In this document: positions 11,659 to 64,000 of the stretch, piece by piece | Position numbering within the stretch: the stretch's first letter is position 1 | How the letters are laid out: every line of letters begins with the position of its first letter | IMG/VR virus record: IMGVR_UViG_3300049427_000004 | Coordinates: 1-64,000 of that record | From: a virus | Strand: one strand, 5' to 3' | DNA: 64,000 nucleotides | Notes under the pieces: model-generated | The model's input: only the letters and a program-made list of their open reading frames with translations | Database searches by the model: none | What the model was told of the DNA's origin: nothing | Program-made: the position numbers and the translations under genes

Positions 11659-11694
11659 TCCTTCCCTTTTAAATCTATCATTTCAATCTTTGTA

Positions 11695-11952
11695 TTAACT
11701 CGTTAAACTGACGATATGTCCCAAAGTCTCCCTAATTATTCTCTCTGTAATTTCTTCACCTTTTTCGAAATATCTGTTACCGTGTTTTCGTTCATAGTCG
11801 ATCCAAGTTTCCAAACGGAATGTATCATAGCGGTCTGACTCTTTTTGCACCTCAGATAAGGATACTGCTTTTAGTATGGTGTCTCCTAAACTACTACTTT
11901 CAGAAATTAACTCCTCATCAAGTCCTAATTGAAACAACTTATATTTTGTCAT
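11695..11952 (-). CDS. Hypothetical phage protein
   Basis: 85-aa ORF with GAAAGGA RBS. Confidence 0.65.
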   Translation of the reverse strand: MTKYKLFQLGLDEELISESSSLGDTILKAVSLSEVQKESDRYDTFRLETWIDYERKHGNRYFEKGEEITERIIRETLGHIVSLTS

Positions 11953-12024
11953 GTCATATTTCCTTTCGAATAATCAGAATGTATAATTAGCTCGTATGTA
12001 ATGTAATAGTAAAGGTGTGATGCT

Positions 12025-12609
12025 ATGCTAAATGTAAAAATCACAATAGACGATGGAAAAGGTAAGAAAGCTGAACTTGAATTAAACGAAGATGAACAAC
12101 TACCAAAGTTAGTGATTATTCAAAATGTATTCAAACTGTTTGGAATCGATAATGATTTGTTAGATCAAATTAAAACATTTGACAATGCATCGAAGGCATA
12201 TTCTTCATTCTTCAGTGAAACAATTCCAGTTGAACCTGAATGGATAAAAGAGAAAGCTACGGATACTGACATTAGACAGAAGCTAATTGAATCATATGAA
12301 CAGAACAGAATTGAATTACAGAATACATATAAAGAAACTAAAGATCAACAACCTGAATTTGTGAGAACAGGAATTAAAATTAATAACGATGGCACAAAAA
12401 GATATAAGCTATATTACATATGTTCGAAATGTGACCATACTGGAAATCATTATATTTACGATTTTTCAAAGCATACATGGTGTCACAGTTGTAAGTTTGA
12501 AATGTTAGTCTATCCTGCAACACCTGATTACTTAACCAGAGATACAAAAGGTAATTTCTTTAGAGCTGGAGAGTATAAGGATATAAATTTAGCATGGACA
12601 ATTGGATAA
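12025..12609 (+). CDS. Zinc-ribbon protein of unknown function; only substantial plus-strand gene in the prophage segment
   Basis: AAAGGTGTGA RBS; CSKC...CHSC pairs; own divergent intergenic gap. Confidence 0.8.
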   Translation: MLNVKITIDDGKGKKAELELNEDEQLPKLVIIQNVFKLFGIDNDLLDQIKTFDNASKAYSSFFSETIPVEPEWIKEKATDTDIRQKLIESYEQNRIELQNTYKETKDQQPEFVRTGIKINNDGTKRYKLYYICSKCDHTGNHYIYDFSKHTWCHSCKFEMLVYPATPDYLTRDTKGNFFRAGEYKDINLAWTIG

Positions 12610-12654
12610 TCCCAATTGTCTTTTTTTGTAATGAAAGTGTTCTTATATTTCCAT

Positions 12655-13641: not shown

Positions 13642-13655
13642 TAGTCAACCTCCTT

Positions 13656-14717
13656 TTATCTATTTACTCTATTTTCGTATTTCTCCACACTCAGAATATG
13701 CAAGGCATGTGACCATCCAAGCGGATTGTTAGGACATGGTTTCCCATCAGCCATATACCCTTCAGGTAAATATCCGTTTTCATCAAACAATTCTTCAGTC
13801 ATATCTATGTATTCTTTTGCCTTTTCAATATTACCTAATTCAAGGTGACATATCGCTAACCAAGGAATAAACATAGTCCATTGCATTTCAGTCTGATCGT
13901 AAAATTCCTTATGATGGTTTCTACCATGATCCTTTTCTAGAGTCGAGTAGTAGGAGTCGAATTTATAGCGTAGACATCCTTTATCTCGAACAAGTTCGGA
14001 TTCAACGTTCTTGATGATGGTTTCTGCCATATTCCGATCTACAATCTGAAACGGATAAATCAACGATAGTTGAGCTGCATCAACTGTCTTTGAGATGCTT
14101 TCATTAGTAAGTAGTTGTGAGAGAGCATCGATACCTTTTTGAATTAGCTCATCTGGAACATTGACGATATCTTTGACTTTAATTAATGATGAGACACATG
14201 CTCCAATTGAAGAAGCATGGATTTCAAGATCTTCTTCCCATAGCGAGTTGTCATGGTCATGCCAATATTCAATACAGTATAAATAGTCTACCAACATTTG
14301 AATAATTTCTAAATCTTCATCATTTCTAATGAGATTCATATCACGAGAAATTGCTTCCCCAAACATCCATAGGATAGCTGCTGTTGAATCATTTTGAGCA
14401 TTTCCCCACTCTACATCTACTTCGTATCCTTCAATTGTATAACGAGGATGAAGATATTCATAAGTGTAGATAGGTTTCTGGTATGTATGTATTTTCAATT
14501 TACTTTTATACCGTTTTAGAATATCTAAGATGGCGTGACAAGTTTTCAAATATCGACCACACGATTTATCAAGGTAAGGCATCACCTCGTAAAATGTATC
14601 ACGGAGCCAGATGAAATTGTATGTTGAGGAGAATGACGCCTTATACATATTGTTTGATAGTCTCAACTTATCCAAAATTACATAGCTTTGCTCAATACGA
14701 TCATCCACTTTAATCAT
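13656..14717 (-). CDS. Glycoside hydrolase family 15 protein (glucoamylase-like)
   Basis: WLRD, QNDS, LWEE...HASSIGA, DAAQLSL, PLGWSHA motifs. Confidence 0.8.
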   Translation of the reverse strand: MIKVDDRIEQSYVILDKLRLSNNMYKASFSSTYNFIWLRDTFYEVMPYLDKSCGRYLKTCHAILDILKRYKSKLKIHTYQKPIYTYEYLHPRYTIEGYEVDVEWGNAQNDSTAAILWMFGEAISRDMNLIRNDEDLEIIQMLVDYLYCIEYWHDHDNSLWEEDLEIHASSIGACVSSLIKVKDIVNVPDELIQKGIDALSQLLTNESISKTVDAAQLSLIYPFQIVDRNMAETIIKNVESELVRDKGCLRYKFDSYYSTLEKDHGRNHHKEFYDQTEMQWTMFIPWLAICHLELGNIEKAKEYIDMTEELFDENGYLPEGYMADGKPCPNNPLGWSHALHILSVEKYENRVNR

Positions 14718-17090: not shown

Positions 17091-20000
17091 AACAATTCCC
17101 TCCTTTGAAATACATCTTTTATCACCTTTTTACATTTAAAAAACGTAGCATTAACGAGCATTCGAGAGTATTTGGAAGGTTATTTTTGAATAGATTTCCA
17201 TTTATCAATTGGGCATTCTGGAAAATTCCCAAAATTATTAATTGCCCAATTAAGATCACTGAAAATTAATTTGTCATTTTGTAGATTACAGTGATAGTCA
17301 ATACAATCTATAGTCCCTGTTTCATAAACCTTTGCATTTGCGAATTGACAATTATAACATGAATAAGATTTAGTATAATCTTCGCACGGCGTTTCATCTG
17401 GAATAAGTTTATTATGTTTCTTACAATGCGAACGAATATCCCAAACTTCATTCTGTTCACAGTATGTATCAATTAAATATCTACATTCTTTATCAGAACA
17501 TGTACTCATTTTTTCTCCTCTTTCTTACCGATTATTGATGAACACTACGTTCCCATGCGCTTTCTCGTATAGCGCCATTTTCTCTTTCAGTTTTTCGTTT
17601 TCACTTTTCAAATTCTGAAGCTCTTCGTCTGTGTTGTCATATGCAAGATCAAACGCTGCTATATCCTCTACGATGTCAAGTTGTTCTTGTGTTCCAGTGT
17701 CAAGTAGCATTTCAGACAATCGATCAAGTTTTTCGAGAATAGATGATTTGGTATTTTTATTCATTATAAGCCTCCGTTTTTGTTTTCTAGATAATTATTT
17801 TGGACTACTGGAACTATATCATAGCCATTTCCATCTACGCCTTCAATGTTTTTAATTTCGATAATCTGAATTCTTCTTCCATGCATTTTCACTCTAAATT
17901 CATCTTCAAAAAATTCGGGAAATTGAAGAGCTATCTGTTCCTCATTTTCAGCAATAAAAAACTCTTCATGCGGAGAGAACTCAGGGTCATAGATATCTGT
18001 AATAAAATTACACTTGAATAATTTCATTTTTTTCACTCCTTATAAAATTTAATTTAACTGTTGTTGATTAAGGACACCCACCACTGTCATCTCCTCCAAA
18101 ATAATCTGGATAAGACACGTTAATATCAATCTCCTCATCAATTCGGAACACTCTAAAGTTTTTACAATTCATCTCTTTCATATATGCAACAAAATTCGAG
18201 ATGACTTTTACCCCATTTTCTTCATGATAAATGGCGCGCTCTTTCTCTTCTTCGTCCGTATAGGTGAGAATCCATTTCATAACCTCTATTCCTCCTCATA
18301 AATTGTATATTTTATTTATATATCGTTACTGCAATAATAGTTATCAAACTACATATAATCGTTATGATGCTGCATGTGTTAATAATGACAAATTGCTTCT
18401 TACTCATTCAATCACTCCTTTTGATTGTCTATGATTACTCATTAACTCTCTCATGCGCTGCATTCCCTCCGACTGATCTTTTTCAGTTGATGTTACATAT
18501 TTAATAAAATCATCATATTCCTCATCAGTTTCAAATTCGATTACAGTTGGTCGAATAGGTTTTACTTCTTCCTTTATATCAAATTTCCCTTTTTCAATTT
18601 GATATGCAACCCATTTCATTGCTGCACGATATCCTTGTGAATTATCTTCCATTTCGTCTTCAAGCCATTCCAGTAATTTTTTCTTGTCGAGTTTCACTTC
18701 AATCCTCCATCTTTGTTAAGTTTCCATTAGCATCCATTTTGAATCGTGGTCGAAACTTTTCTTCATTCAATCTCTCTGCATATTCATCAAATCTACCTTG
18801 ATCGTAAGCTGCTTTATAATGTTTTGCTCTGATGACTTTCATTTCTTCTGAGTAAAACAAATCATGCAATTGTTTTTGATTAAGGACATCCACCACTATC
18901 ATCTCCTCCAAAATACCTCAAATGAATTTATAATCCAAGAATTTCTTTAATCTCATTGAATGTTTCATCGTCAACATCAAAACGTATCTCACCATCTTTA
19001 ACATAATAACTATCTGGCTCAAATATTAAGATTGGAGTTCCATCATCTTGATTGTAAATTGTGATGTTCGAATCACCTACTGGAGCAACCGTAAATTTCA
19101 TTTATTCTTCCCCCTCCTATGAAATCTGAATTTCATTTCATTTTGTTAGTGTTGTAATCATCTGCCAGACAATATTTGAAATCACACCAATGCCAATACT
19201 AATGATAATAGGTTTAAGAATTTTCAAAGAATGTTTTAGCTTTATCTTCAAATCATTCATCTTAGTGCTTTTGCCTTGTAGCTGTCTAACCATACAATTA
19301 ATACAAGGCATGTATGCTTTATAGTCTCCATTCCTAATCTTATAAATCTCCCCACACGCACATGCAACATTGACTAATGTGTTCTTGCTAGGTTTTTTAT
19401 TACCTATTATTCTTCTATCTTCGAAGAATACATTCATATCAACTCACCTCCTCAATAAATTAGATATCTCATAACCTCAATGCTCTACCTTTCTCCATTC
19501 ACCTGAAATCTCAAAATCATAGCCGTCATCATCAGTTCTACTTATGTCTAGTAAATAGAAGCCATCTTCAGCTGCACGAACTACATACTTCTCATCCTGT
19601 AGTTCATTCCAAGAGATTAGTCGATTTTCTTCACTATCCCAAAATCCATATTTCATGTTTACCCTCCCCTATTTTATGAATTTAATCTCTTTAATATCTT
19701 TCGACCTAACATCATACATATCTGCTTCAATTACCTCTTTTTCTCCATTAATCCAATCCGCTACTATGATCGCTGCATCTAAAGAATCAATTTCTGTTCC
19801 GAATGTTGCACCATCATGAAACTCAAACAATACTTTCACAGAATCCTGCAAATTCATTGCCCCCTTTCCTCATTTAATCATTCAAATCCAATTCTTCCGT
19901 ATTAACATACAACAACTTCTCAGAGAATTTTCCGTTTATTTTTGTTCCGATTACAACCAATCCTTCATATTCTGCTAAAACTTCAACTTCGAGTTTAATT

Positions 20001-20268
20001 TTAATCTTATCGAACTTAGAACTACTCATTGCCTTCCCCCTCATGAAACGTGTCTTTCATCTAGAACTTTTTGTATCTTCTGTGCCAGCCACAGCTCCTA
20101 CAAGTCGCTGATACTCTTCTCGAATATGTAGTTATATTATTATAATCAGCCCATATCGTACCAACTTCTTTTTCTTCATAATTCCACTCATGTTTACAGA
20201 ACCAGCTTCTTATTGACCAGACTATCCAACTCATACCAAGTACTCCTCACCATAAAATAATACATTTA

Positions 20269-20910
20269 TCAAACGACCATTCTTCTATCACTTAGAATTT
20301 TACTAATACATCTTTTGTAAATAAGATGTGCTCCTTGCCTTGTCATCTTCAAATCTCTGCCGATATCTGATATGGCCTTTCCTTTGAAAAAATAATCACG
20401 AACTACTTTTCTTTCATTTTTATTAAATTGATTGCTGTTTCGTATGTACTTTTTGAATTTATTTTCATATATTTCATTTTCTACTTCTATGTATTCATTA
20501 GTTGTATTATTATCAGCAAGTACTTCATGCCAAGACGATGCATCCGATTCTTCTGGTAATGGCTCATCAATGCTAAACGAATAATACTTACTCCTACATT
20601 TCATGCTATTCGCTCTAGCTACTTTAATAAATTCTTGCCAAACTAGTCTTCCTGCATATGTAGTAAATTTAGTGTTTTTAGAGCTATCAAAATTGTTGTA
20701 TGCTAATGTTAATCCAATGTACCCTATACTCATTAAGTCTTCAATACTTTCATGTGAACCGTTTGATTTCCACTTATGTGCTAACTTCCTGATAAGCGCT
20801 ATGTTGTTTTCGAATAAAATAGTTTTAGAGACATTGCAGCCCAATTTAGCTAAAGTCATCATTTCTTCATTGTTTATACTTTTATCATATTTTTTGTTAT
20901 AAAGATCCAC
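20269..20910 (-). CDS. Phage sigma70-family factor, sporulation type (sigmaE/K/F-like)
   Basis: Region 2 EDLMSIGYIGLTLAYNNFD...KFTTYA; region 4 HTH ISDIGRDLKMTRQGA. Confidence 0.85.
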   Translation of the reverse strand: MDLYNKKYDKSINNEEMMTLAKLGCNVSKTILFENNIALIRKLAHKWKSNGSHESIEDLMSIGYIGLTLAYNNFDSSKNTKFTTYAGRLVWQEFIKVARANSMKCRSKYYSFSIDEPLPEESDASSWHEVLADNNTTNEYIEVENEIYENKFKKYIRNSNQFNKNERKVVRDYFFKGKAISDIGRDLKMTRQGAHLIYKRCISKILSDRRMVV

Positions 20911-21126: not shown

Positions 21127-21132
21127 TATGAT

Positions 21133-21741
21133 TTAACCTCCGAATGTCATATAAATCGATTGTGAGAATAAGGCAAAAAAATTAAGAAACATGTGAGCCA
21201 AGATTACAACATGTAGTCTCCTAGTTTTGAAGTAGAAGTAGCATAACACAAACCCTACTGCAAAGTAACCTAATATGTATGGTAAATTCATGTGTGAGGA
21301 TGCGAATAATAATGAACTTATGGTTGCTGCTAAGATTGAAAACTTTTCGTTGTCTCGCTGCAACCAACCAAAGATAATCTTTCGGAAGATTAGTTCCTCT
21401 AGGATCGGAGCAAATAATACAGTGTATATTGGTACTATAGGAATCAATGTCGTGATTGTGATTTGCTGATTTGGAACGAATATCCGAATTCCAACTAAGT
21501 TAAAAATTGCTTGCACGATGATGCAAATGAAGAATGCTGAGAAAGCTAAGTTGGTGTTTTCGTTGTTTAATGCTTCTGAATCATATGTAATTTCATTTCT
21601 GAGAAGCAGGTATGAGATGATTAGGTTGACTGGAGTGGCGAACAATTGGATGTATGCGATTGGGATAGTCAGTGACGAAATTATGGTCAAGGTGAATATT
21701 GCTGTTATTAATATGTATTTTTGATTTATTGTTTTAATCAT
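21133..21741 (-). CDS. CPBP (CAAX/Abi) family intramembrane glutamic metalloprotease
   Basis: APILEELIFRK, SSLLFASSH, ILAHMFLN motifs; multiple TM segments. Confidence 0.9.
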   Translation of the reverse strand: MIKTINQKYILITAIFTLTIISSLTIPIAYIQLFATPVNLIISYLLLRNEITYDSEALNNENTNLAFSAFFICIIVQAIFNLVGIRIFVPNQQITITTLIPIVPIYTVLFAPILEELIFRKIIFGWLQRDNEKFSILAATISSLLFASSHMNLPYILGYFAVGFVLCYFYFKTRRLHVVILAHMFLNFFALFSQSIYMTFGG

Positions 21742-23637: not shown

Positions 23638-23724
23638 TTGAAACTCTCCTTTCATGGTAAACCTCACACTATATGCGACCGCTACATGTGTGAGGTTTTG
23701 TCTAAATTAAATTATTATAGCTTA

Positions 23725-25395
23725 TTACGCTTCACAGTTTGTGCAGAGTTTATCCTTACTAAATTGTTGCGCAGCGTTTGTACTGTGTTGGTAGTATAGT
23801 GTTTTAATGTTGTTTTCCCAAGCAAATAAATACAATTCGTTGATCTTTTTGGCAGACATTTTTGGATTAATCATTAAATTTAATGACTGACTTTGATCTA
23901 AGAATAGTTGTCTAGTGGAAGCTTGATCTAGAACAACATACTGATCAATTTCACTAAATGTCTTAAATACTTCTCTTTCTTTATCTGTTAAGAAATTAAG
24001 ATGTTGAACAGATCCATCATTGTCACGAATACTATTCCAAACTTCTCTAGTATCTTTATCATAAGACCCAAGAACTTTCTTTAAGTAGGGATTTCGGATG
24101 GTCACTTTGGCTTTAGCTACATCTTTTACGTATATATTTGACCAAATAGGCTCAATGCTTTGTGAAACTTGTTCTAGAATAAAAGCAGAGCTTGTTGTTG
24201 GTGCAATAGCTGTCAAGGTTGTATTACGTCTTCCATAACCCTTCAAAACCTCTGGTTCTCCATATAATTTCGCCAAATCTTCCGATGCTTTATATGCTTG
24301 TTTCTGAATAAAGCTAAACATTCTAGCATTTAATTTGATTGCATCCATGCTTTCAAATGGAATCATATTAGATTGCAAGTAAGAATGCCATCCTAAAGCA
24401 CCTAATCCTAAAGCGCGATTTTCTTTTGCGAAACTATAGGCCCTTTCCATAAAAAAGAAGGCTAAATTATCTTCATTGTCTTTAGAATCACGAAACTTTT
24501 CAAGTTTTGATATGAATTCAGTCATAACCGCATCTAGGAAAAACACCATTGTTTCGACAGCATCTGTTTCTTTCCATTCGTCATAATACAATAGATTCAT
24601 TGATGACAAATTACAAACAAACGACCACTTTTCATTGTTCGGCAATGCAATTTCTTGGCACATGTTGGAATGATTGATTTTTAAATTTTTATCCTTATAA
24701 ACATCTACTGTATTTTTATTAACTGTATCAGTAAAGAAAATATATGGGTATCCGATTTCAGAGCGAGACTTTATAATCTTAGCCCATACTGTGCGTTTTT
24801 CTTTATCTCCATCAACCATTTCTTTCATCCATTGATTGGTAACAGTTACACCATGAATTAATTTTTGAATTTCGTTTCCCTCTGTACCAATTTCTAAAAA
24901 TTCTAAAATATCTGGATGCTCTACTGGTAGAGACGGAGAGAACATTCCACGTCTCGAAGATCCTTGGCTGACAACATCGACAATCGAATCAAACAATTTC
25001 ATAAAATGAACTGCTCCAGAAGATTGACCATTGTCCTTAATATCCGCACCTCTATGACGCAAATCACCGAAGTATCCAGATGTTCCTCCACCAAACTTAC
25101 TCATTACCCCAACTTCGGATTGCGAATATAGAATTCCTCCCATATGGTCTGGAAGATAACTACCAAAACATGAGATTGGCAATCCCTTATTATTTCCAAA
25201 ATTCACCCAAACTGGAGTTGACAATGAGTAATATCCTTTTTCCATGTAGTTATAAAATTTATCAGCAAATCCCTTAATTCCAAGAATGGATTCCGCCGTA
25301 TCTGCAATTATGCGGATGCGTTGTTCAGGTGTGACTCCCTCAGTTAAATACCCACGAGATAAAAAGTTTCTGCTGTTTTCATTAAGCCATTTCAT
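23725..25395 (-). CDS. nrdA: Class I ribonucleotide reductase alpha subunit, no ATP cone
   Basis: PISCF, GGGTSG, SQGSSRRG, SNMCQEI (NxCxE), CNLSSMNL, TAIAPT, KTLYY, C-terminal CTNCEA. Confidence 0.93.
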   Translation of the reverse strand: MKWLNENSRNFLSRGYLTEGVTPEQRIRIIADTAESILGIKGFADKFYNYMEKGYYSLSTPVWVNFGNNKGLPISCFGSYLPDHMGGILYSQSEVGVMSKFGGGTSGYFGDLRHRGADIKDNGQSSGAVHFMKLFDSIVDVVSQGSSRRGMFSPSLPVEHPDILEFLEIGTEGNEIQKLIHGVTVTNQWMKEMVDGDKEKRTVWAKIIKSRSEIGYPYIFFTDTVNKNTVDVYKDKNLKINHSNMCQEIALPNNEKWSFVCNLSSMNLLYYDEWKETDAVETMVFFLDAVMTEFISKLEKFRDSKDNEDNLAFFFMERAYSFAKENRALGLGALGWHSYLQSNMIPFESMDAIKLNARMFSFIQKQAYKASEDLAKLYGEPEVLKGYGRRNTTLTAIAPTTSSAFILEQVSQSIEPIWSNIYVKDVAKAKVTIRNPYLKKVLGSYDKDTREVWNSIRDNDGSVQHLNFLTDKEREVFKTFSEIDQYVVLDQASTRQLFLDQSQSLNLMINPKMSAKKINELYLFAWENNIKTLYYQHSTNAAQQFSKDKLCTNCEA

Positions 25396-25410
25396 TATTA
25401 TAAATTCCTC

Positions 25411-26676
25411 CTAAAATAAGTCATCACCAGTGATGCTTTGCATTCTTTTGCTATAGTTAATTTGTCTCTTAACAAAAAAGTCTCCGTGTTTTGTTGCTAT
25501 AATCTCAGTATCAAACCATTCCGTTTGTTCGACAACATCTTCATCAATATTGAAAATCGAATTGTAGCCAATACTACGAAGTGAACTATTAAGGCGATTT
25601 TTAACAAATTCTTTGACAAGAGATTTTGGTAGAAAATCTAAGTCTCCTGATTCGTAAATCCAATCAATAACAATTTCTTCTGATTCATACGCTTCTCTAC
25701 ATGCCTGAATTACCATTTTCTCAGTATGCTCATTAAACCACTCAGGATGTTCATTTCGAATAATCTTGATAAGGTCGATGCCGAACAGTCCATGTATTTG
25801 CTCTTCTTTAGAAGTGGCTTCAATAACATTTGACATACCTTTGAAAATATTTTTATGTTTATTAAATGACATGATAATTAAAAATTGTGAGAATAGTGAT
25901 ACATGCTCGATGAACAATGAGAACAAAAGAATAGACAATGCATAGTCCTTATTTTCTCCAGTACGTGCTAGAGCTACGCCTTTTGTCAAATATTCTACAC
26001 GTTGAAATAATTCAGGGATTTTTTCAATCTTCTTGAATTCGTCATTTAACCCTAAAATTTCAAGCAAATGAGAGTATGCGTCTTGATGTCGAACTTCACT
26101 TTCTGCGAATGTGTATCCAACAGAACCTACCTCTGGTTTTGGAAGGCGATGATATAAATCACCCCAAAAAGATTTAACTGCAACTTCAACTTGGGCAATT
26201 GCAAGCATTGCATTTTTAATTACATTTCTTTCTTTATCCGATACATTAACCTTAAAATCTTGAATGTCCGATGTGTAATTGAACTCAGTATGTAACCAAT
26301 ATGAATGTTGTATGGCTTCTTTATATTGAGAAAGTTCTGGATACTCGTAAGGCTTCAAATTTAAACGATGCTTAAAAATATTAGGTCGCCTTTCTTGGTT
26401 TCGTTTATCGCGGTAGAGGATATATGCTTTTGCTGTAGATTTGTGTTCCGATTTCAGTAGAGCTGTTTCAACTAGATCTTGCACTAACTCAACAGTTAAT
26501 TTTTCATAATCGCTGCACTCTATTAACTCCAATACGTCTTGAGTCAACTTCGCTGCTTCAGTGTCGTTAAATTCTCCTGTTTGTGCTCCTGCTTTCTCAA
26601 TAGCGCTTGTAATCTTCTCAGAATTAAATTCAACTTCTATTCCATTACGCTTCGTAATTATGTTTGACAACCCCAT
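25411..26676 (-). CDS. nrdB: Class I ribonucleotide reductase beta subunit with N-terminal ATP cone
   Basis: ITKRNG..FNSEKI..AI..A / VQDLVE..L / AKAYILYR cone, then EVRHQDAY and KEEQIHG di-metal motifs. Confidence 0.92.
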   Translation of the reverse strand: MGLSNIITKRNGIEVEFNSEKITSAIEKAGAQTGEFNDTEAAKLTQDVLELIECSDYEKLTVELVQDLVETALLKSEHKSTAKAYILYRDKRNQERRPNIFKHRLNLKPYEYPELSQYKEAIQHSYWLHTEFNYTSDIQDFKVNVSDKERNVIKNAMLAIAQVEVAVKSFWGDLYHRLPKPEVGSVGYTFAESEVRHQDAYSHLLEILGLNDEFKKIEKIPELFQRVEYLTKGVALARTGENKDYALSILLFSLFIEHVSLFSQFLIIMSFNKHKNIFKGMSNVIEATSKEEQIHGLFGIDLIKIIRNEHPEWFNEHTEKMVIQACREAYESEEIVIDWIYESGDLDFLPKSLVKEFVKNRLNSSLRSIGYNSIFNIDEDVVEQTEWFDTEIIATKHGDFFVKRQINYSKRMQSITGDDLF

Positions 26677-26945
26677 CTTCCCTTCCAATATCACACTATG
26701 TATTTATTACTCATAAAATAAATATTTGATTGGCTTTCTAAGAAATCAAATTAATAATATCTTCAATGACCCAACCAAAGAATGTCATCATTACAATAAT
26801 CCCGTACATAACCAGAGTAAATTTATCAACCGTCTTATTTTTAATAATATTAACAAAGACATAAACTGATCCAGTGAAAGCTAGCAAGCTAATAATCAAC
26901 CATACGATATCCATCTATTTCCCTCATTTCATAATATTTTATTTC

Positions 26946-27522: not shown

Positions 27523-29916
27523 TTAATTAACTTTTTTCAAACCACCATGAACATTTAATACATGGCCATCAGGAACCTTATCTATAATATTAAATTGATT
27601 CATTACTTCTTCCTCTGACAACGCGAGCGACTTACCCAATACTTCTCCGTATTCCTCATCATAAAGCCAACTATGAATGCTATAGCCGAATGAAGAGTAT
27701 TCTACAGTTCCGTAATTTTTTGATAATTTATCTTGAACAATTGTACCGAGTGGGATAATTACAATCACCTCCCTACCTCATAAATGAACTGATTTATAGT
27801 CACATGTAATTTTATTAATGAATTAATTGTCAAACCAAAATACAACTCTCACATCATCTGGTCTTACTTGATATTTTGGGATATCATGCTCCTTCAAGTA
27901 GCTCTTTAATTTATTGATAGTTCCTTCATAGAACTCAGAGCACAATTCTTTGATTGAAGTGTGATAATATACTTTATAACCGATACCGCCTTTTTCGGTT
28001 TTAATAAATTTAGCACCAAGTTCACTTCGAACTTTAGCCAACCTGTCTTCATCAAAAGCGAATTCAGTTCCTTCTTCTGGAATATCCCAACCATCATAAT
28101 TAAGGAGTTCTTCTAATGTCAAATAAGTGTGGGAATGACCATCTACTCCATAGTCGTCTGATTCATGCTTTGTTTCAAGGGATACATCATCTGGCAACCC
28201 TTTTGGCTCGCTAATCGGTTTTATATCCCAATAATTCCTTACATTTGCCAAGATAGCAAACAGGCAATAGTTGCGACCTTTATAAATCCTATCTTCATAA
28301 TCTACATGGAATCTTCGGTTGTAATCCTCTGGGTATTTAATGTGGTCTTCATTGACAGTCCATTTATCAGCATTAATCCAAATACCGTTTTCTCGCTTAT
28401 CATCATCATATGTATAGCGTCTTACTTCAAGATGTGCGTGAATATCGCAACCCATATATTCATCTCCCTATTTTTAATTGTCCCATAAAAGGACGATTTC
28501 AATTACTATTTTATTTTTTCAATTCGGATCAAATAGTTTTCCATAACTCCATCAATAAATTCCATTTCTACTACATCGCCAATATGGAAATCGGTGAGAT
28601 CTGTTTTATGTATTTTGCTTACTTTTTTGTTCGAAGTAACTTCATGCCCATCGACATGAATACTGTTTTCTGAGATAGATGTTACAACTCCATAATCTTT
28701 TATCAGTGAATGTTTATTTAAAGCTCTCTGTTCATCTGTATTTGAGATTATCATCCAAGTTGAAATACTAATTATGAACAGTATTAGGAAGAGATAAAAG
28801 AGCTTCCATTCCGCGACAACCAAACACATGAACGTCAGTAAGATAGAAATAATTCCTAATACTAAGGCAATCAACAGTAGAAGATCGTATATGATATACA
28901 TTTTTCACCTCCAGTCATCTATTGAAATGAGCATTTTAATATCTATTACTTCCAGAACTGATACCATTTCTTTGCTGGCGCAACGAATGCTTCCTCAATT
29001 TCAATGCTTTCTTCAGAATTCATTTGCATCTGTTCTTTTCTCTTCTCAAGAACAAGTTTCCTCGCCTCTAAATCAGTCTCGGCTATTCGCTTAGATTCTT
29101 CATCGTTTATCACATTTTTCTTATCTATGCGATAAAATCGAATCTACGCTTAATTTTACAGGCTCAAATCCAAAATAGTTGTAAATGAAGTGTGAGCCAA
29201 GAAAATAATTACGACTTATCTTTTGTTCAAAGACAATTGCCTTCATATGTTCAACTCCTCTTAAAATCTATATTTTATTTTCTTTGTGCTCTGTGATAAT
29301 CTTCTTCCAATCACTATCATCAACTTCTTTATTAATGTATTTTAAAGCAGTTTCTTTGCTAATTAAAACATCCACCTGATTGTCGTAATCGTAATCTTCA
29401 TCAGAGTTGGAGATGTTGTTTATAGCCATGCTAATAAACCAATTTTTCATGAAATTCTCATCGTCTGCATGTTTTTTATCTACCATTCCATCAATATTAA
29501 TTCTCAAAGTTACTGTGCCTTGAACTAAGGACATTTCCACTTTTTCGTTCATATTACACATCTCCCTGTAATGTTATTTTGTATTGAAACTTGTAATTCA
29601 TAACCTATTTAATAATTACCTTTTCACCAAAAGCACCAAATTCCCATCCAGTTTTACCTGTTCCGTAGCAATCAGGGCATCCATAGCCAGTATCACTAGG
29701 ATGATCACGATATGTACCACCGCCACCACACCAAATGCAATTTGGCAGAGCGTCAAACTTCCATCTGTACATATCTTCCTTTGTTGGTTGACCAATTAAA
29801 TCATAAATATCTCTAGCTGCCTTCTTTGTTTTTCTAGATACCTTACTTAGATCATGTTCATGTTTCTCAAGCCATTTCCAATGTCTCCATCTATTCAAAT
29901 AAAATTCACCTCCCAT
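27523..29916 (-). other. Run of short accessory ORFs incl. a 210-aa MGCDIH...VVFWFDN phage protein (27823-28455) and a membrane protein (28506-28901)
   Basis: ORF track, RBSs and palindromic boundary sites. Confidence 0.8.
28946..29246 (-). pseudogene. Frameshifted ~100-aa accessory gene
   Basis: GAGGAG-ATG frame stops at 29121 after 41 aa; an adjacent frame continues IRFYRIDKKN...KKWYQFWK* without its own RBS. Confidence 0.5.
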
Positions 29917-41831: not shown

Positions 41832-42176
41832 TTTTCATTTTCACCTTTTCGTTATGTATTTTTCTTATCTTCTTCCTTGAGACTTTTATGTAAGCAAGCG
41901 CAATGAGCGATAATGTAGTATAGATAATGCAAGAAGATACTAACACACTTATACCAATCAACTCCTTGTTATATTTCCATTTTTTACTTTGTGAGATTAT
42001 GATAGCATGGCTATACAGAAAAACGCAAGTACAATTTTTAATATTTTGCACTTGCGTCTGGATTCTGATCATTTTTACAAATTTCTGAAATTTGACCTTA
42101 AAAAAAGCTAGTGTTTATAAGGGTTTTTTAGTGCCAATTTCCCCATGAAAGGGTAGTTTTATCGGATGGGCGGTTT

Positions 42177-43259: not shown

Positions 43260-43276
43260 CTAACCTCCTCTCCTTC

Positions 43277-44809: not shown

Positions 44810-44821
44810 ATGACCACTCCT

Positions 44822-45400
44822 CTATAGTAGATGCGAAATATCTCCATTGTCTTTTTTTCTTTTAGTTTTAATTGGCTCATCAATTGACATATCGGTGTCA
44901 ATTAATCTAGTCATTTCTTTTTGTAAATGCAGCTCTTGCTTCAATTTAATTTGTCGATTTTGCCATGCAGTATTTAATCCATTTAGCATCATCGAAATAC
45001 ATTTATTAATGTCGCTTGCGTCTTTACCATCATTCAGCACATCTTTAATGAACCATTTAATCTTATCTTCTTGAAGTTTGTAAGCTTCCAGCATCAAGTC
45101 AAACTCTACGCCAATTCGGTAACGCTGATATTTTTTTCCTTCTTTTATGTCAAACCCACCACGCAGCTCTTGAAGTCGTTTAATATTACGTGTAGGAATA
45201 ACAATAATCTCGTGCAGTTCTTTTATGTATTCAAATAAATCAGACCACTTTTTATTCTCTTGCTTTTGGTATTCCTGTTGCTCTATGTATTTTTGATGGC
45301 ATATTTCAATATGGTAGAACTTTTTATCGGTTTCTTGTGTCATTGTGGATTTTATTCCAAATTGCTCACATATCTGACACTTAACTTTCCTTTCAGCCAC
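44822..45400 (-). CDS. Zn-finger replication-associated protein (YorH-like position)
   Basis: CQIC...HIEIC; immediately upstream of helicase and primase as in SPbeta. Confidence 0.6.
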   Translation of the reverse strand: MAERKVKCQICEQFGIKSTMTQETDKKFYHIEICHQKYIEQQEYQKQENKKWSDLFEYIKELHEIIVIPTRNIKRLQELRGGFDIKEGKKYQRYRIGVEFDLMLEAYKLQEDKIKWFIKDVLNDGKDASDINKCISMMLNGLNTAWQNRQIKLKQELHLQKEMTRLIDTDMSIDEPIKTKRKKDNGDISHLL

Positions 45401-45409
45401 TTAATCACC

Positions 45410-47392: not shown

Positions 47393-47617
47393 TTTTAATA
47401 TTTCACCTCTTAAATTTATTTTTATACCCAACGAAATTTAAGTTTCGTTGCCTTTTTCACTCTGTTCGAACCTGCTATTCAATATTTCATTTTGTATGTA
47501 TAGCATCTTAGCATACTCTTGTAGTAGCACTATGTCCTGTGTAAACGTCTTAACGCTCACTTTTGCCCATCCTTTAGGACTTCTGTTTATTAACTCCTGA
47601 ATTCTTGGTAACATATT

Positions 47618-48564: not shown

Positions 48565-49020
48565 TCATCCATTATATTTGTATAAAGTTACTTCATAATC
48601 CTCAAACACTTTGTCGATTATTCCATATACTTCATTCCAGTCTGCCCCACCTCTATCACTGCCAATTTTATATGGAAGAGCAACGGAATATTTGTGATCA
48701 ACTGCAAAACTTTTAAGTAAACCAAGAGACTCTTTGATTGCAGTGTAACTTGTGAATTGACCATTATAGCCATAATCGAGTTGACCAAATAAGTTAGCAA
48801 TGATTTTACCATCGACTACAGAAACGAAGAGACATTTGCCCAATGCATACTTACCATAACCATATGTGTTCAAATAGGCTTTATACTCTCTAAATAAGCC
48901 ACCGTACTTATCTCTTAGTTGTTTAGCTACACCAGATCCCATAACACCCTTGCAGTTCACTTGATGACCAATAATGTCTTCTGTTGCATCGAGCAAGTTT
49001 CCTTCAACCACTTTAATCAT
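48565..49020 (-). CDS. Macrodomain protein (Poa1p/DarG-like ADP-ribose hydrolase)
   Basis: EGNLL, IGHQVNCKGVMGSGVA, IANLFGQ, ALPYKIGSDRGGADW; ATG at 49020 after GAGGAG. Confidence 0.88.
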   Translation of the reverse strand: MIKVVEGNLLDATEDIIGHQVNCKGVMGSGVAKQLRDKYGGLFREYKAYLNTYGYGKYALGKCLFVSVVDGKIIANLFGQLDYGYNGQFTSYTAIKESLGLLKSFAVDHKYSVALPYKIGSDRGGADWNEVYGIIDKVFEDYEVTLYKYNG

Positions 49021-49105: not shown

Positions 49106-49987
49106 TTAAGCAGCTTGACGTTCATTCAAAATAGACTTAACAATCACAGGCAACTTCTTTCCAATGCATTTACGAATGTCTTTTTCTTCATATGTATTAA
49201 GTGAATCTGACTCTTCTTTCATGATATCATCATAAACTCGATTGCCAAGATGTTTCAGAATCAATCCCATATCTTCAATCCCAAATTGTTCATCAAGAAT
49301 ATTTTCATCAACCAGCTTATATAGTAATTTTTCTACTCTTGCCTTAGTCATACACTCATTAATAAATGTCATCTCAACTGATTGAAAATTAGGATCTTTA
49401 GGAGCTTTCTGTTTTTGGACTTCTCTGAAACCATCAGAAACTAATTTAACAAAACATTGTTTTTCATATCTATCTTTATAATTTACGTTTTTAACAACTA
49501 CTCCTTCGCCCTCAGAACCTAGAACTGACTGACCGACAAATGATTGCAGATGTTCAAATGATTGATATTTACCCTCGTAGAATAATGGAATCAAGTTCAT
49601 AGAAAGTCGATGCGACTCATCTTTTACCATAGAGAAGTTAACATACTCTCCAATAAATTCATTGTAAATATCGAATAGGTAAAATTGATTCATATTGCTA
49701 CCATAATCCAACTTGTGTTTAACTAGCCATTCTCCATAATAAATTACACCATCAAGCAATTTCGCAGGATTTAGCGTCTGTGTCCATTCGTAAAAACCTC
49801 TGAGATTGTTTTCGGCACTAAGATGAGTATTACGAGAGAATGCCAGAATAGCACCTTCATGCAGCTTAAATGACGCATTGGCTCCATCCAACTTTTCTTG
49901 AATTACAATGTCGTCACCTTCATTTAGTACCCCTACTGTTGTCTTATGGCCTAGACGAATAATATCAGTATACTTCTTCATTTCCAT
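49106..49987 (-). CDS. RNA ligase (Rnl2-like nucleotidyltransferase)
   Basis: Motif I QEKLDGAN, YGEW, FYLFDI, EGVVVK, VKLV. Confidence 0.85.
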   Translation of the reverse strand: MEMKKYTDIIRLGHKTTVGVLNEGDDIVIQEKLDGANASFKLHEGAILAFSRNTHLSAENNLRGFYEWTQTLNPAKLLDGVIYYGEWLVKHKLDYGSNMNQFYLFDIYNEFIGEYVNFSMVKDESHRLSMNLIPLFYEGKYQSFEHLQSFVGQSVLGSEGEGVVVKNVNYKDRYEKQCFVKLVSDGFREVQKQKAPKDPNFQSVEMTFINECMTKARVEKLLYKLVDENILDEQFGIEDMGLILKHLGNRVYDDIMKEESDSLNTYEEKDIRKCIGKKLPVIVKSILNERQAA

Positions 49988-52357: not shown

Positions 52358-53936
52358 TTATGCAAGAGAAATAATTTTACAGCTTCATTTATTTAAATAT
52401 ATATGTATTTTTAATTTTTTTGTTTATAAAATCATGCTTTCGTTGGCTACCATTCGCCTGTTTCATGAAATTCATCAATGCACGGATAGCAATAAATCAT
52501 ATCCTCATTTTCGTCGGATGAATATGGAGCTTTTGATTCCATATTTTTCGGTTCTAAACAATGGTCGCAAATAAAATCATACTTCTTATTCTTCTCATTT
52601 AAGTATTTGTCCTTATTATTTTCGATATAATTCATTGTTTTTTTAATACTCATAACTCGTCACCTCCTCATGAAAGCTATGTTTTATCATCTATAAGTCC
52701 TTCAATTTCAATTATGAAATCATCGGAATATTTTTCGAAAAATGATAATTCATATTTATATCTAGTCCTCTCCCAAAACGGGCATTTAATTACACCAGCA
52801 AAATATGTCCCTCTGTATTGGGCAGCTTCTTTGTTTTTACACCACCAAGTACCAATTCCGCCTTCGCAATGAAGACAATCATAACATGATTTCTTATTGT
52901 TATCTGCCTTGCCATTTACAATCACTTTTTTAAACGTTTTCTTCCCCCTATTAAATTGTGCTAAATATATAATCTGTCTTCAGTTACCATATCAGATAAA
53001 CTAACTCCGTCAACCAACAATTTATCCAATAATGCTCTTGCTTCTTCAATGCGTAAGGATTTAGTCTCTTTGTTTTGTCGGTAAGTATATTTCTTCTGAA
53101 GGTTTTGCTTAGATTGGTTTAGAAATTCAGGTATATTATTCATCATTTCACCGACACTCCATCCTCATGAAACATTCATTTGCTACTTCCAACGATCAAT
53201 CCACTTATAGAAATCCATGATGTTGCAAATTCCTAAAATGTGTCCACCGTCTGGATTCTCAATGTACTTCAAGCTATCAGTTTTGAGTGAGATATCCTCG
53301 ATACGTCTGATTGAAATTCCATCTGTATATGATTCGCCAACTACTAAGTCAAATGGTTCTGTGTATGGCATTTTTTCACCTTCCTAATGAAACAGAGTTT
53401 TTAACCGATGTATTTGTGCCATAGCGCAGCAAATGTTTTTGACCATTTACCATTTTTAAATTCATATCCATCAATGTATATTTTATTATTAATTGTTGTA
53501 ATGCTGAAACCCATCATATTTTCATGAAACGGAATTATCTTATCACCAAACACAACAACTCTTTTGTGCTGATTAACAAAAACTGATCCATTAATAAAAG
53601 CACCCACTTTACACCTCGATCCCAATTAATAAGTTTTTATGATCTCATTTTATCTCAAATGATATTGCTGCTGGCTTATTGCTCTCATACAGTTCCATGT
53701 GTTGCTCAACAAATTTATCCCATACTGTAGCCGTTAGTTCATATTGCCCATCTACTTCTTCTGCATCAGTAACAATACCAATCGCCTTGGAATTATCGTT
53801 AATATCTGCACTGAATCCAAAGCCCTTAACAGTTTTGTCTAGAACAGGAAGATTGATATAATCTCTCAGACTTCCATTTTTATTAACCTTCACTTTAATT
53901 ATCATGTACACTTCCCTCTCTACATGAAACCGATAT

Positions 53937-56607: not shown

Positions 56608-57231
56608 TTATTCTTTGTTCAATGTCCAGTCACATTTCTCAGGACGTTCAATAAGTTGAATAAATTCTAATGGTTGACCAGCGTCATCCACATAAAACAG
56701 TTTACCATCAATATTAGTCTGTTTCAGAATTTTTTTGTAATCTCCCCATCTAACTTCTTCTTTAATGAAGTCAGGGCTGTTTTCTTTTACAAACTGTACA
56801 AAACTAGGATCGTCTTTAGCTTTGGATACTTCTTTACCGTTAACAAGAATCTCTGGCTGTTGTTTTTTGAACGTTAAGCTGCGAGTGGGTAATTTAATCG
56901 TAGAACTAATTTTCTTAGCTTTATTCGCTTTCTCCTCATCAATGACTCGCAGTTGATAAGCATGAAGGTGCTGTTTGAAAAACTCAATATCATTCACATG
57001 CTTTTTAGCAGCTGACTCTTTCCATAGATCCATCTTTGCTTTAAACGAATCCATACGCTCATTGTAAATTTGCTCAATTTCTTCTACTTTCTTTTCTTTC
57101 TCGACTAGGATTCCATCTACCCAAACAGCCATTCCATAATCATAAACTCCCCATGCTTGATCTTGTTGCAGTTGGTAAACCTCATCGTCCTCAAGTAGTG
57201 CTTCTTCAATTTGTTGATTGTAAGTTGTCAT
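56608..57231 (-). CDS. Mu Gam-like host-nuclease inhibitor
   Basis: Coiled coil followed by TIKLPTRSLTFKKQQP and ...IKEEVRWGDYKK pattern. Confidence 0.75.
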   Translation of the reverse strand: MTTYNQQIEEALLEDDEVYQLQQDQAWGVYDYGMAVWVDGILVEKEKKVEEIEQIYNERMDSFKAKMDLWKESAAKKHVNDIEFFKQHLHAYQLRVIDEEKANKAKKISSTIKLPTRSLTFKKQQPEILVNGKEVSKAKDDPSFVQFVKENSPDFIKEEVRWGDYKKILKQTNIDGKLFYVDDAGQPLEFIQLIERPEKCDWTLNKE

Positions 57232-59777: not shown

Positions 59778-61581
59778 CTCCTTATGAAAATGTGAATTTA
59801 TTTAGATTTCACTACTTCTAATTCTGAAATTTCTCTTTTGTTTAATGGTAAAACATGCTGTTCATATACGTTTCCGATGTCGTAATCAAATCCATACCTT
59901 TCACCACACACTTTACACTCCATAAAGGTTTCTTGCCCTGTTCCATCGCTGTCATAGTGTTCAAGTGAACCATCATCATTTACGTAATATTGATGTACTA
60001 CGCCATCAACTATGTGTAGCACCAGCCTTATGTCTTCTTCATTATGTTCATGTAGTATTTTACACCTTTCATTTTGACACGAAAATTTACTCATGATTCA
60101 CCTTACTTTCAATATTTATCTTACTATCAAAATATTCTTTTCCAGGGATTTCGTTAGAAGTGGCTTTACCACATTTTAAGCATCTGCTAATCGATCCTGA
60201 TTCAAATATGTCTTCGTTGCATATTATACATTTATCATTCAATTAAATACCACTTCCTCATAAATGTTCTCTTTCATCGAGCACTTTTTAATTTTTCAAT
60301 CTTATTGACCACTGCTTGAATAGATTCTTCTGATTCACGTTTAATTTCATCTAATTCATTTTCCAATTCTTTAATCTGTTTTGCGAAATGGAAATCAGGA
60401 TCAATTGTTACTGTATAGTATTTTTCATTTTCTGGTTTGATTTCTGCAAGAAATTCCAAGTTAGTAGCTCCATATTTAATTTGATTGAAATTTCCAAAAA
60501 GATAAGAATGACTGCTTATATTCTCTTGTTTTCGATCAATAGTTAGAGATGGCTGCTGCATAAAGGGAACGTCTATCGTACAAGGCTCACCGTTCCACAG
60601 TCCTCTAGCCTTAAGCGTGAAACCTTTTCCATCAACTCTTTTAGTGATATGTATTTCTTCAAATCCTACTCCACTATTATCTATGTTCATATGTCATTCT
60701 CCCTTTAAATTCCATCATTTATTTGATACTGTAAAGACTTAATAATTCATATTTAGTTTTAATCTGCATCTCATTTTTCCCTGCTCTATTCCAACTAAGA
60801 GCATCTTCCTCGCTCATTCTATTTCCTTCGCCATTATCCCATTCATGCAATCGTTGTTCTCCGTATTCCCTTTTGTACCATTCGCGATATGCTTCTAATG
60901 GCAAGGCATATGTAATCGGTGCATCAATTACACTTGACCAATGTAAATACAAATCTTCTTTAGTAACATCATCTTTTAAAACAAGTGTATATCTAGGCAT
61001 TTCCTCTTCTCCTTCCTGCCCAATGAATCCCGTATTTCTTCGGGTTAAATTTCCTCAGAATCAATTTCTATTTCGTCATTCTCACTTACCACTATAAGAT
61101 TTATTCCTTTTTCAATATATTGTGACCCTGACTCAGTGAAGCATGGCATTTTTCCATTTTGCATGACGTATCCATATCCTTCATAGAAATCATGACCATA
61201 ATGTGCTCTATTCCATGCAATATTTGCAGCATGGTCTTTTAGCGTTTTTAAATTTGTGAAATCCTCACGATAATCTTGCATCCACTTTTCATTTATTACA
61301 TTTTCATCAATTTCTATAATGTACTCATTAGTAGTAGTTACCACGCATTTAAAATTTTTCATTTAATCCTCCTGATATTTTCTTCTTTAAATCTTTACTC
61401 ATATCCTCAAAATAGTACCGTTGGTAATGAGAGTGGATTGTAATAATATCTTTCAACAATAATTCCTTCTTCATTTCGTCTGGTTCATTTAAGTAATCCT
61501 CACGTATTCTATCTAACATCTCTTGAGCAGTGATGGTCAATTTACCACTCCATTCTCCCTATAAATTCTTCATTTTATCTT

Positions 61582-61935
61582 CTAAATCTCCACAATCTTA
61601 ATTGCTTTTCCTTCAAATTTCATAATAAGAGAAACGGCATCCTCATTTCCAACCATATAGCAGCCGTCATATGCATCATATCGCACCACATTATCATCGG
61701 GATACTCTGGTTCTGTAGGCCATTCATCGTTATGTGATTTGCACTCACAAACTTCATTTTCTGTCTCATTAATAAAATCATAGTGACCGTGAGGAATATG
61801 GTATAATGTACTTTCTGTTGGATTACTGGCATTCATTCCAACAATAGTTCCATCAACAAGAATTCCACAAACATCAATTAATCTGCCTGATGGTAAACCA
61901 GATTGAGGTATAGTTACTTTTACTTGCTTGCTGAT
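61582..61935 (-). CDS. Hypothetical protein, probable ATC start
   Basis: GGAG 8 nt before in-frame ATC AGC AAG; the nearby ATG is out of frame. Confidence 0.55.
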   Translation of the reverse strand: MSKQVKVTIPQSGLPSGRLIDVCGILVDGTIVGMNASNPTESTLYHIPHGHYDFINETENEVCECKSHNDEWPTEPEYPDDNVVRYDAYDGCYMVGNEDAVSLIMKFEGKAIKIVEI

Positions 61936-62853
61936 ATTATCATCTCCATTCCCAATTAAATTTCCATTTCGTTGCCTTATTTAGACTGATTATATTGACT
62001 GATAATTTCTTCTCTAGATTTACCTAGCAGATCAAGGCAATGGTTGAGTAAAGTTAAATCAGAATGCTCTTCTTTTCTACAAAATCCACAACTGGTCTCC
62101 TGACTCCATCGGGAGCCTTCTGGAGTGTATCCCTCTTCCTCTCGTCTATATCCTTCTGATTCAGCACATTTGTCACTACACCAGTGTTCACCACATTCGC
62201 AGCCTACGTAATCACCACAATCAGGAAACGTATCGCTACATTTACTACACGCATACCAATCTACTCCCATTTACCTATCTCCTCTCATATTTACCTAATA
62301 AACTTCCAGTTTCAATGCCTTAATAATTGTACATTTTCCAAATTACATCCATTCTGTTCTTATCATTAATCTCTGAATTATTTAAAACATCTTCAACTTT
62401 TTTATTTTTATTAATAACCAAGAATAGATCTCCAAACTCATTCTCATATGTATTTTGACATTCATTTGAGTAATCCAATTCGCCTTCCCATGGCACATAG
62501 AAATCTTCACTAGTACCATCCTCGTAATGAACACCAACTGAGACAATATCTCTGGATTGTGTTATGCGTTCAAATTTATTCATCTCCCATTCTTCTTGAT
62601 CAAATGGCAGATATGATATATTATCATTCCTATTTATTGAAAGTGAAAAGTGTTCACAGCATCTCATTTTGCTAACTGAATTTACTGCAATCCTTCGAAT
62701 GCTGTCTTTGATTTCATCAATATGCAGATGACCTATTGACTTGCAGTCAATGGACATCACCTCGCAATTTTCAAACCCTAAATCGATATTTTTTATTTGT
62801 TTAAACAATATTTATTAGCCTCCTTTTTCCTCATAAATGTCAAGTTTCATTGC

Positions 62854-63405
62854 TTATTCTTCAAGCTTCTTAAGTACTACTGGAAACATAAAGGTTGCAA
62901 ATTTCTCCGAATATAGCTCTTGAAAATGATACTTATGTTCTGCATTAATTTCCGAATTACCTTTGAATATGATGTCTAGGAAATGATTGTTGATCTCATC
63001 TAATTTTAGAATACTTGCATATTCGCCTGAATCTTGTTTAAATTCCTCATAAAGTAGAATATGCCCTAATTCATGAATGAAATTATAAATAAGTAATGTT
63101 CCATCTGAAAATTCAACATCTATAGCTTTGAAAAATGCTAATACTTCTTCATTTGAGCCTGTGTATATTTCATCTCCAAAATATTCAAACATATTGGAGA
63201 ACAGCATAATTTCGTAAGAAAATGACTTATCTCTTTTAGTTTTAGGCCTCTTGACGGACATTTGAGCAAAAGGAGGATTAGATTTATTACTGTCATACCT
63301 CTGCTCTTTAGGATATTCATAAACGCCATAAGTTATATTTGCTTCCTGAAGGATAGGTTTTATTTCTCTTATTTGCTTTAAGACATTATCTAATACTGGT
63401 GTCAC
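62854..63405 (-). CDS. Zincin-like metallopeptidase (HExxH; ImmA/IrrE-like)
   Basis: FIHELGHILL with downstream ELYSEKFA. Confidence 0.6.
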   Translation of the reverse strand: MTPVLDNVLKQIREIKPILQEANITYGVYEYPKEQRYDSNKSNPPFAQMSVKRPKTKRDKSFSYEIMLFSNMFEYFGDEIYTGSNEEVLAFFKAIDVEFSDGTLLIYNFIHELGHILLYEEFKQDSGEYASILKLDEINNHFLDIIFKGNSEINAEHKYHFQELYSEKFATFMFPVVLKKLEE

Positions 63406-64000
63406 TCGATCCCCTCTTTCTAATCCATATGAAAGACAAATTTTATCACCTAAAAATAAGAAACAATCCTCCTGCTGATATTGCGGTAAAAAGGAATCCT
63501 AAAAACAAACCTTCTAATAATCCCTTGGCATGAGCTTGATGTTCGGTGAAAGTCCAATCTTCTATTTTCTTAATCAAACAAACTCCTCCATTCCACGCCA
63601 TAATACGTGATCATCTTCAACACATCTAAAATACTCATTCAGGGGTGCATGATCATTCAACGAACATGAAATTCGATCTCCCCAATATTCACTTACGTTC
63701 ATGGCAACTAATACATCAGCAATAGATTCTCTGCCATAACTGTCTACACATATAATCTTCATAAGTGCATCTCCTTTTAAAATTGATGATTCAACGCCTC
63801 TTCTTCATACGACCAACATAATCCAAGGCAATAAATACCCAAAAGAAACTCCACAAAATTATCTTATTTCTAATTCCGATATTAAACACTTCTGAGTCGT
63901 CCTTGGTGGTTCGTTTAAAATGCCAACTTAGAATGCTCATAACGATCCAACCAAGGGCAATGTATGCTACTACATTGACTGCAATATTAATTAATATGGA

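Follow-up and report, generated by a model that had tools for sequence, protein, structure and literature searches.

Short inverted repeats with private cores as candidate crossover sites for gene replacement in an SPbeta-like prophage

An array of about 54 copies of an 18-bp site runs from 11669 to 63794 in the window, the 64,000-nucleotide stretch analyzed here, which is the first 64 kb of the 178,866-bp virus record IMGVR_UViG_3300049427_000004. Each site consists of two inverted 6-bp arms around a 6-bp core (consensus WTRAAW-N6-WTTYAW), and each core is private to its copy. An earlier sequence-only reading had proposed that these are recombination sites of a phage system for cassette capture and shuffling with freely varying cores, or else the binding code of a phage regulator. 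Comparison with other prophages leads us to favor a different account, namely that the sites are probably matched-core crossover points for in-register gene replacement between related phages.

The phage (G000 in our comparisons) is an SPbeta-like prophage and its host is probably a Paenibacillus; the helicase shares 75-86% identity with the helicases of Paenibacillus prophages. Left of the prophage, up to about 4.5 kb, lies host DNA with 46% G+C, and past the border the early region, on the minus strand, has 34% G+C. Neither megablast against phages nor a primase scan of viral contigs returned close relatives, and most of the loci that a thyA scan of metagenomes returned were unrelated. Our comparison panel comprised six Paenibacillus-type prophages, including G000, G002, G003, G004 and G006; the closest relative, G003, resides in Paenibacillus sp. 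GCM10027627 and can be aligned over only 22 kb, at about 70% DNA identity. Coordinates prefixed with C1 are those of the whole record.

The sites and their place between genes

All six sites quoted in the sequence-only reading are present at the coordinates it gave, among them the perfect copies at 19119-19136, whose core is identical in G003, and 20043-20060, whose core is one base off there; its count by eye of about 50 was also close to the mark. Our working list holds 55 sites, each with a weight-matrix score of at least 9 or common to a relative, of which the match at 61349 probably arose by chance. The other listed sites start at 11669, 12631, 15339, 15561, 15907, 16349, 17105, 18298, 19119, 20043, 20252, 22056, 23638, 26713, 27780, 28485, 28922, 29261, 29584, 29916, 33032, 33950, 34713, 35211, 37162, 39746, 40254, 40732, 42145, 47431, 48291, 49044, 52426, 52670, 53387, 53924, 54854, 55508, 55819, 56204, 57265, 57526, 57793, 58130, 58993, 59784, 60260, 60705, 61023, 61561, 62298, 62833, 63429 and 63777.

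Generic perfect 6-6-6 palindromes are not enriched in the window (31 versus 16-37 at other spacers), and a test of enrichment therefore needs the consensus. Between 6 and 64 kb the latter gives 46 matches at spacer 6 as against 9-16 at spacers 2-5 and 7-12. With a weight matrix trained on the five other prophages and 100 local dinucleotide shuffles as controls, 45 sites score at least 10 versus 7.4 +/- 3.0 in the shuffles (maximum 14), and 31 score at least 12 versus 2.5. A site of the latter class lies in the 60 nt upstream of 23 of 112 genes, compared to 0.2 when the same 60-mers are shuffled, while 80 kb of Paenibacillus host DNA yield a single match. The comparison with shuffles and host DNA that the sequence-only reading had suggested thus shows enrichment, and the recombinase-like geometry it had perceived, i.e. 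inverted arms around a 6-bp center, fits both the preference for spacer 6 and the matrix enrichment. No core in the window is self-complementary, and beyond the arms there is just a weak symmetric signal, an A/T tract 5-8 bases out. The rest of the record also carries sites, with 94 consensus matches overall; in the late region (C1:116113-171160) they occur among structural genes too, at lower density, and three of these (129636, 139289 and 144497) are paired with G003.

The placement described earlier, with each site wedged between the stop codon of one gene and the ribosome-binding site (RBS) of the next, holds for nearly all listed sites. The upstream open reading frame (ORF) stops between 30 nt before the site and the site end in 51 of the 55, with a TAA or TGA of the left arm itself serving as the stop in 14; a Shine-Dalgarno-like word lies within 5 nt of the right arm in 36 and within 20 nt in 50. 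The units so bounded are indeed small (median 705 bp), but they comprise one to five genes rather than one to four accessory genes, and core blocks are bracketed too. For example, the core replication block on the minus strand (UvrD-like, yorH-like, helicase and primase; 42145-47448) lies between sites 47431 and 42145, the latter with a one-mismatch partner in G003. As had been stated, there is no site between yorH, helicase and primase, nor any inside yolD-dinB. The supposed lack of sites inside the thyA-nrd block did not survive: a strong site, 23638, stands there between nrdA and a dUTPase-like gene, and together with site 26713 delimits a unit of nrdB (with ATP cone) and nrdA (23638-26730, minus strand). 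The stretch from RecU to dnaE, likewise thought to be free of sites, has one high-scoring match (7588-7605), which is identical in the G003 orthologue; as it lies inside an 86-aa ORF (7409-7669), it is ambiguous between coding constraint and an intragenic site.

Cores as addresses and breakpoints at the sites

The cores vary within the genome, as had been noted, but they are not free, being conserved between relatives. All 55 listed cores in the window are distinct, and across the six prophages duplicates within a genome are avoided (5 seen versus 19.6 expected; Poisson p 1e-4). Genome-wide, G000 and G003 have 50 identical cores in common against 7.4 expected, 47 of which fall in one collinear chain (11 expected; maximum 16 in 300 permutations). 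Between these collinear anchors there are 17 more in-register pairs at one mismatch (16 distinct sites) versus 1.8 expected, and no excess of pairs at two mismatches. Within the window 35 sites are paired with G003 in register, 27 with identical and eight with one-mismatch cores, and at paired sites the variable arm positions and the flanks are about as alike as in random pairs. The most conserved part of the site is thus its core, a stretch that a recombinase does not read, and the arms merely follow the consensus. Most other pairs among the six prophages show chains of 11-24, with those of G002 being mostly near chance.

What lies between the conserved cores is by and large different. As called by tblastn at E 1e-4, 22 of the 35 window intervals compared with G003 have no common gene, 12 are mixed and one is fully common; of 109 window genes, 85 lack a homologue, 22 have one in the matching interval and two have one elsewhere. 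The four consecutive minus-strand sites 63777, 63429, 62833 and 62298 (62298-63794) keep both cores and order in G003, with none of their three intervals holding a common gene, and the nrd slot of G003 contains a non-orthologous pair of 772 and 365 aa (21-23% identity) between matching sites. In the sole interval with its gene kept (28485-28939, minus strand; 66% identity), the two phages also have the left arm of site 28485 and its flank in common. Such unique cores, kept letter for letter and in order, with genes that retain their address, run counter to the capture and shuffling of cassettes with free cores envisaged earlier.

As no close relatives of the phage were at hand, we turned to SPbeta for breakpoints. 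It carries a stricter version of the motif (34 consensus matches in 50 kb versus about 7), and between SPbeta and phi3T similarity repeatedly starts or stops at sites, with a methylase, for instance, replacing yorT between two kept cores. In about 75 Spbetavirus loci with 521 distinct homology breakpoints, 110 (21%) fall at sites versus 3.1% for positions drawn at random, with a peak at the outer edges of the arms, in line with the earlier expectation that gains and losses of genes would break there. Spacers 4 and 8 provide valid controls, with 1-6 hits versus 54-56; those with spacers 5 and 7 are contaminated by one-base shifts in A/T runs. Restricting the comparison to breakpoints at gene junctions, 57% are at site-bearing junctions, which constitute 33% of junctions, an odds ratio of 2.7 whose p-value is untrustworthy because the Spbetavirus genomes are related. 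The core is the same on both sides at 98 of 109 breakpoint sites. In about two clear cases the arm of one site is joined to the core of its neighbor with deletion of the unit, and the remaining non-identical cores are mostly single changes. Around 10 of 36 cores, two left flanks unrelated to each other occur with two equally unrelated right flanks in all four pairings, an outcome that calls for a crossover within or right at the 18 bp, unless the flanks arrived independently more than once. Finally, 137 of 149 flank classes hold one core within one mismatch, the exceptions being mostly neighboring cores.

We posit that a dimeric or tetrameric protein would bind the arms and exchange strands across the 6-bp core, with a match of cores needed between the partners, as in tyrosine recombination. 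The setting would be two related phage genomes in one cell, either a prophage and an incoming phage or a double lysogen. Here, two crossovers at two matched pairs of sites could replace the unit or units between them, whatever their sequence, a route equivalent to the replacement of dif modules via a cointegrate with matched spacers (PMC13141974). The upstream gene would carry the stop and the left arm and the downstream gene the right arm and RBS; as the latter two move with the downstream gene, an incoming gene would be expressed in the early transcript. Unique cores would protect the genome from self-deletion, and a rare crossover between unlike neighboring cores would delete a unit.

Alternative explanations and candidate enzymes

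The same breakpoints and the same order of sites would be predicted if the sites were crossover hot spots for annealing or end joining, whereby a protein marks or cuts the arms and a Sak4-like annealase, a RecJ-like nuclease, RecU or Ku/ligase joins ends sharing 18 bp. Sak4-like, RecJ-like, RecU-like and ligase genes are present in the record and no recombinase gene tracks the sites. However, this mechanism would favor identity over all 18 bp, whereas the arms are at random-pair identity where the cores match, and Sak4-like and RecU-like genes are undetected in several motif-positive phages; hence, we consider it unlikely. Integron-like or Tn916-like cassettes, excised as circles across unlike cores and reinserted elsewhere, could account for the few deletions in which the left arm of a site has become fused with the following core (SPbeta versus phi3T; the two clear cases of 109). 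Against them stand the conserved order and cores, with only two of 24 common genes having changed interval, the lack of attC-like boxes and the failure of both recombinases of the record to reach the integron-integrase cut-off (22.7 bits versus 265), which together make this alternative very improbable.

Dyad symmetry, many copies and phage-specificity would also be expected if the sites were a code bound by a regulator of the phage or by a nucleoid protein, acting as a roadblock, in antitermination or as a replication or packaging mark, with swaps made by ordinary means surviving only if the site is kept. Moreover, of the genes tested, the catalytically dead MrpR/SroF-like gene alone is found in all 12 motif-positive phages while being absent from the one negative. 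That co-occurrence depends on this single negative phage, which we take to have a different lifestyle. MrpR/SroF is a monomer on a long operator at about ten promoters (PMC10516654; 10.1101/2025.11.27.690993), as against the 34 SPbeta matches in 50 kb. More generally, one protein has one preference, and the plain version of the regulator code put forward in the sequence-only reading explains neither position-specific, copy-specific cores conserved between unrelated flanks nor the avoidance of duplicate cores, so that we regard it as a decidedly unlikely account. RNA hairpins at gene junctions, functioning in processing or translational coupling, or a mere by-product of stop codons and A/T-rich leaders, would suit the way the sites abut stops and RBSs. 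Yet the arms do not co-vary (at the R/Y position 106 A-C mismatches versus 110 A-T pairs; Fisher p 0.4), which speaks against an RNA stem, hairpin loops would not be position-specific, and shuffled upstream regions give 0.2 against the observed 23; the hairpin explanation is largely refuted.

Several observations weigh against matched-core exchange itself. As many as 79% of the Spbetavirus breakpoints lie off the sites, the fine statistics come from those Bacillus loci rather than from near kin of the phage studied, and related genomes in the set are not independent. In laboratory hybrids of SPbeta and phi3T, recombination had taken place mostly in long stretches of homology (10.1101/2020.05.06.055103). 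The tblastn threshold behind the calls of no common gene can miss fast-evolving small genes, and selection would have to keep the cores near 95% identity for a reason that we can only infer. The arm-specific information amounts to 6 bp, which is short for a lone recombinase, and neither recombinase of the record tracks the sites cleanly across phages. Thus, the G006 prophage, hosted by P. radicibacter, has 121 undecayed sites yet a Cre-like tyrosine recombinase gene in the YopP slot, and Lactococcus phage LW81 has YopP and YomM genes without enrichment of the motif. Nor does the YomM tree, in which G003 and G006 go with SPbeta and G002 and G004 with Tsamsa, predict the arm type. As for the phi3T 's' fragment, neither of its ends coincides with a consensus site. 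Of the sequencing runs listed as containing the phage, one was a DNA run, possibly its source, and none an RNA run; the DNA run revealed no alternative joints at sites, although contigs would lose such joints, and a 29-bp second match in that run at 52404-52432 was dismissed as a chance A/T-rich match inside a gene.

The sequence-only reading had seen no tyrosine recombinase in the window and suggested looking elsewhere in the prophage, where we found two, both intact-looking. One is YopP-like (C1:113156-114208; 28% identity to SPbeta YopP, R-K-H-R-H-Y present) and lies beside tubR-tubZ; the other sits ahead of the tail genes in the YomM slot (C1:143430-144500; 27% to YomM, with catalytic motifs), and its stop codon lies in a site. 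For both the best NCBIfam match is archaeal XerA, far under its cut-off, and the PDB matches of the YopP-like protein are weak and XerA/XerC-like. In SPbeta, Geobacillus E3, Tsamsa and one phage each of Staphylococcus and Mammaliicoccus, no dyad ranks above this motif, whose signal in an Alicyclobacillus phage is weak. At the R position of the arm, G has a frequency of 0.25-0.65 in Paenibacillus phages versus 0-0.12 in Bacillus, Geobacillus and staphylococcal phages; with the arm type off the YomM tree and the Paenibacillus YopPs forming one clade, this leans toward YopP or another vertically kept factor. The YopP-like protein is the leading candidate for the enzyme, though at less than even odds, another phage or host factor is a possibility only a little more doubtful, and the YomM-slot protein is a rather unlikely candidate. 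Two further proteins were rejected: the large serine recombinase at the prophage border with host DNA to its left (4578-6083, minus strand), the integration enzyme, is a single border enzyme with the wrong site type, and the MrpR-like protein was discarded as a catalyst since none of its aligned copies has H-x-x-R. The MrpR-like and YopQ-like genes of the record are located beyond the window.

The neighborhoods of the candidate genes offer a few observations of their own. The YopP-like gene adjoins tubR-tubZ within C1:109759-114208. Downstream of it are a helix-turn-helix gene and an HNH-like gene, and also a RecD2-like helicase, which seems to be broken into two ORFs. The tubZ-YopP layout recurs in locus L179, and a recombinase next to tubZ could be a dimer resolvase. 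In Alicyclobacillus phage KKP_3916 (L187), with the weakest motif among the positives, the YomM-like gene (about 27.3-27.8 kb) is divided between two reading frames, which could be a sequencing error.

Known systems, cargo and implications

The nearest parallels are the pdif sites of Acinetobacter plasmids, recombined by XerC/XerD, where accessory genes similarly lie between many sites with a 6-bp spacer (PMC13141974; PMC6449649). There, single dif modules are replaced between near-identical spacers by two crossovers, governed by matched 6-bp spacers (PMC13141974), and on comparative grounds the cores described here are likewise matched between recombining partners. In contrast to pdif sites, with their distinct 11-bp XerC and XerD arms in alternating orientation, host enzymes and a handful of copies per plasmid, the phage sites have short symmetric arms without a XerD arm, about 100 copies per genome and a conserved order. 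The XerD inner arm is found in none of the 55 sites and is present in a dif-like site of the host of G004; the arms thus argue against an action of host XerC/XerD. In single-recombinase Xer systems (XerH/difH, XerS/difSL and XerA) one enzyme acts on both arms, as might be the case here; specific reading by XerH is confined to the inner 5 bp of each arm, and the 6-bp center goes unread (PMC5241119). Those systems, however, have one site per chromosome, resolve dimers and are activated by FtsK, as opposed to the many differing centers seen here. In engineered cassette exchange with heterospecific lox or FRT sites, spacer identity picks the pairs and the segment between unlike sites is replaced rather than excised. 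This is an artificial arrangement of two sites with 13-bp arms and an 8-bp spacer, as against about 100 natural addresses.

PeSL elements of T4-type phages likewise recur between genes and mark places where relatives have exchanged accessory genes, but each combines a promoter with a terminator, and recombination among them produces mini-circles (PMC2839356). The present sites are 18 bp long, each unique, mostly in gaps too short for a promoter and without an RNA stem; given the lack of arm co-variation and their position between stop and RBS, they show neither the promoter nor the terminator stem-loop of PeSL, a comparison made without a promoter scan. SPBRE, the MrpR/YopR (SroF) operator of SPbeta, is again a repeated intergenic element bound by a recombinase-fold protein, with about ten long, promoter-linked copies for a catalytically dead monomer (PMC10516654) rather than a 6-6-6 dyad with private centers. 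An identity of the sites with that operator was rejected on copy number, symmetry and position, taking SPBRE as published and not as mapped here. Integrons share the punctuation of small genes by sites. Unlike them, the phage array has no RYYYAAC/GTTRRRY boxes of attC in any of the 55 sites (by a simple box scan, not an attC model), no IntI (TIGR02249 gives the cited 22.7 bits for the YopP-like protein and no hit for the YomM-slot protein) and no reordering, with 47 of the 50 common cores collinear and 22 of 24 common genes still in their interval. Exchange between non-identical cores as a routine event, as at the ends of Tn916/Tn1549, is likewise not seen, in view of the 98 of 109 breakpoint sites with the same core. 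By analogy, then, the sites may work like dif modules or heterospecific-site exchange, while falling outside the pdif, integron and Tn916 families.

The genes between the sites are of diverse kinds. A 353-aa early-region gene (13656-14717) matches glycosyl hydrolase family 15, an unusual cargo, and the ribonucleotide reductase small subunit with its N-terminal ATP cone (25411-26676) lies upstream of a short large subunit. Other site-bounded units hold Mu Gam-like (56608-57231), RNA ligase (49106-49987), macro domain (48565-49020), CAAX protease-like (21133-21741) and sigma-70 region 2 (20269-20910) genes, several of which could counter host defenses. A 45-bp direct repeat, 93% alike (18059-18103 and 18871-18915), comprises the RBS and start of gene 18699-18902, recurring at the end of gene 18068-18280, and is perhaps the relic of a duplicated or replaced gene start.

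We found no description of the motif in a literature search that included SPbeta papers, with the 1999 SPbeta genome paper and subscription papers outside its range. The mosaicism of phages is usually explained by illegitimate joining followed by selection, or else by exchange through homology in the flanks; to our knowledge, dedicated boundary signals have been proposed and seldom shown. The joints seen in this case can be pointed to and counted, and each has its address; since the model phages SPbeta and phi3T have them too, the question is testable in B. subtilis. It is plausible, though slightly on the doubtful side of even, that one phage tyrosine recombinase of the YopP/YomM type acts on about 100 sites in a natural, genome-wide cassette exchange spanning SPbeta-like temperate phages of Paenibacillus, Bacillus, Geobacillus and Staphylococcus. 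The cores would then be a coordinate system common to the lineage, in which a gene with the right pair of cores fits a slot without homology. If true, this would explain how most small early genes, and even nrd pairs, have turned over with gene order kept, give a function to a conserved orphan recombinase and provide a natural supply of many orthogonal short recombination sites.

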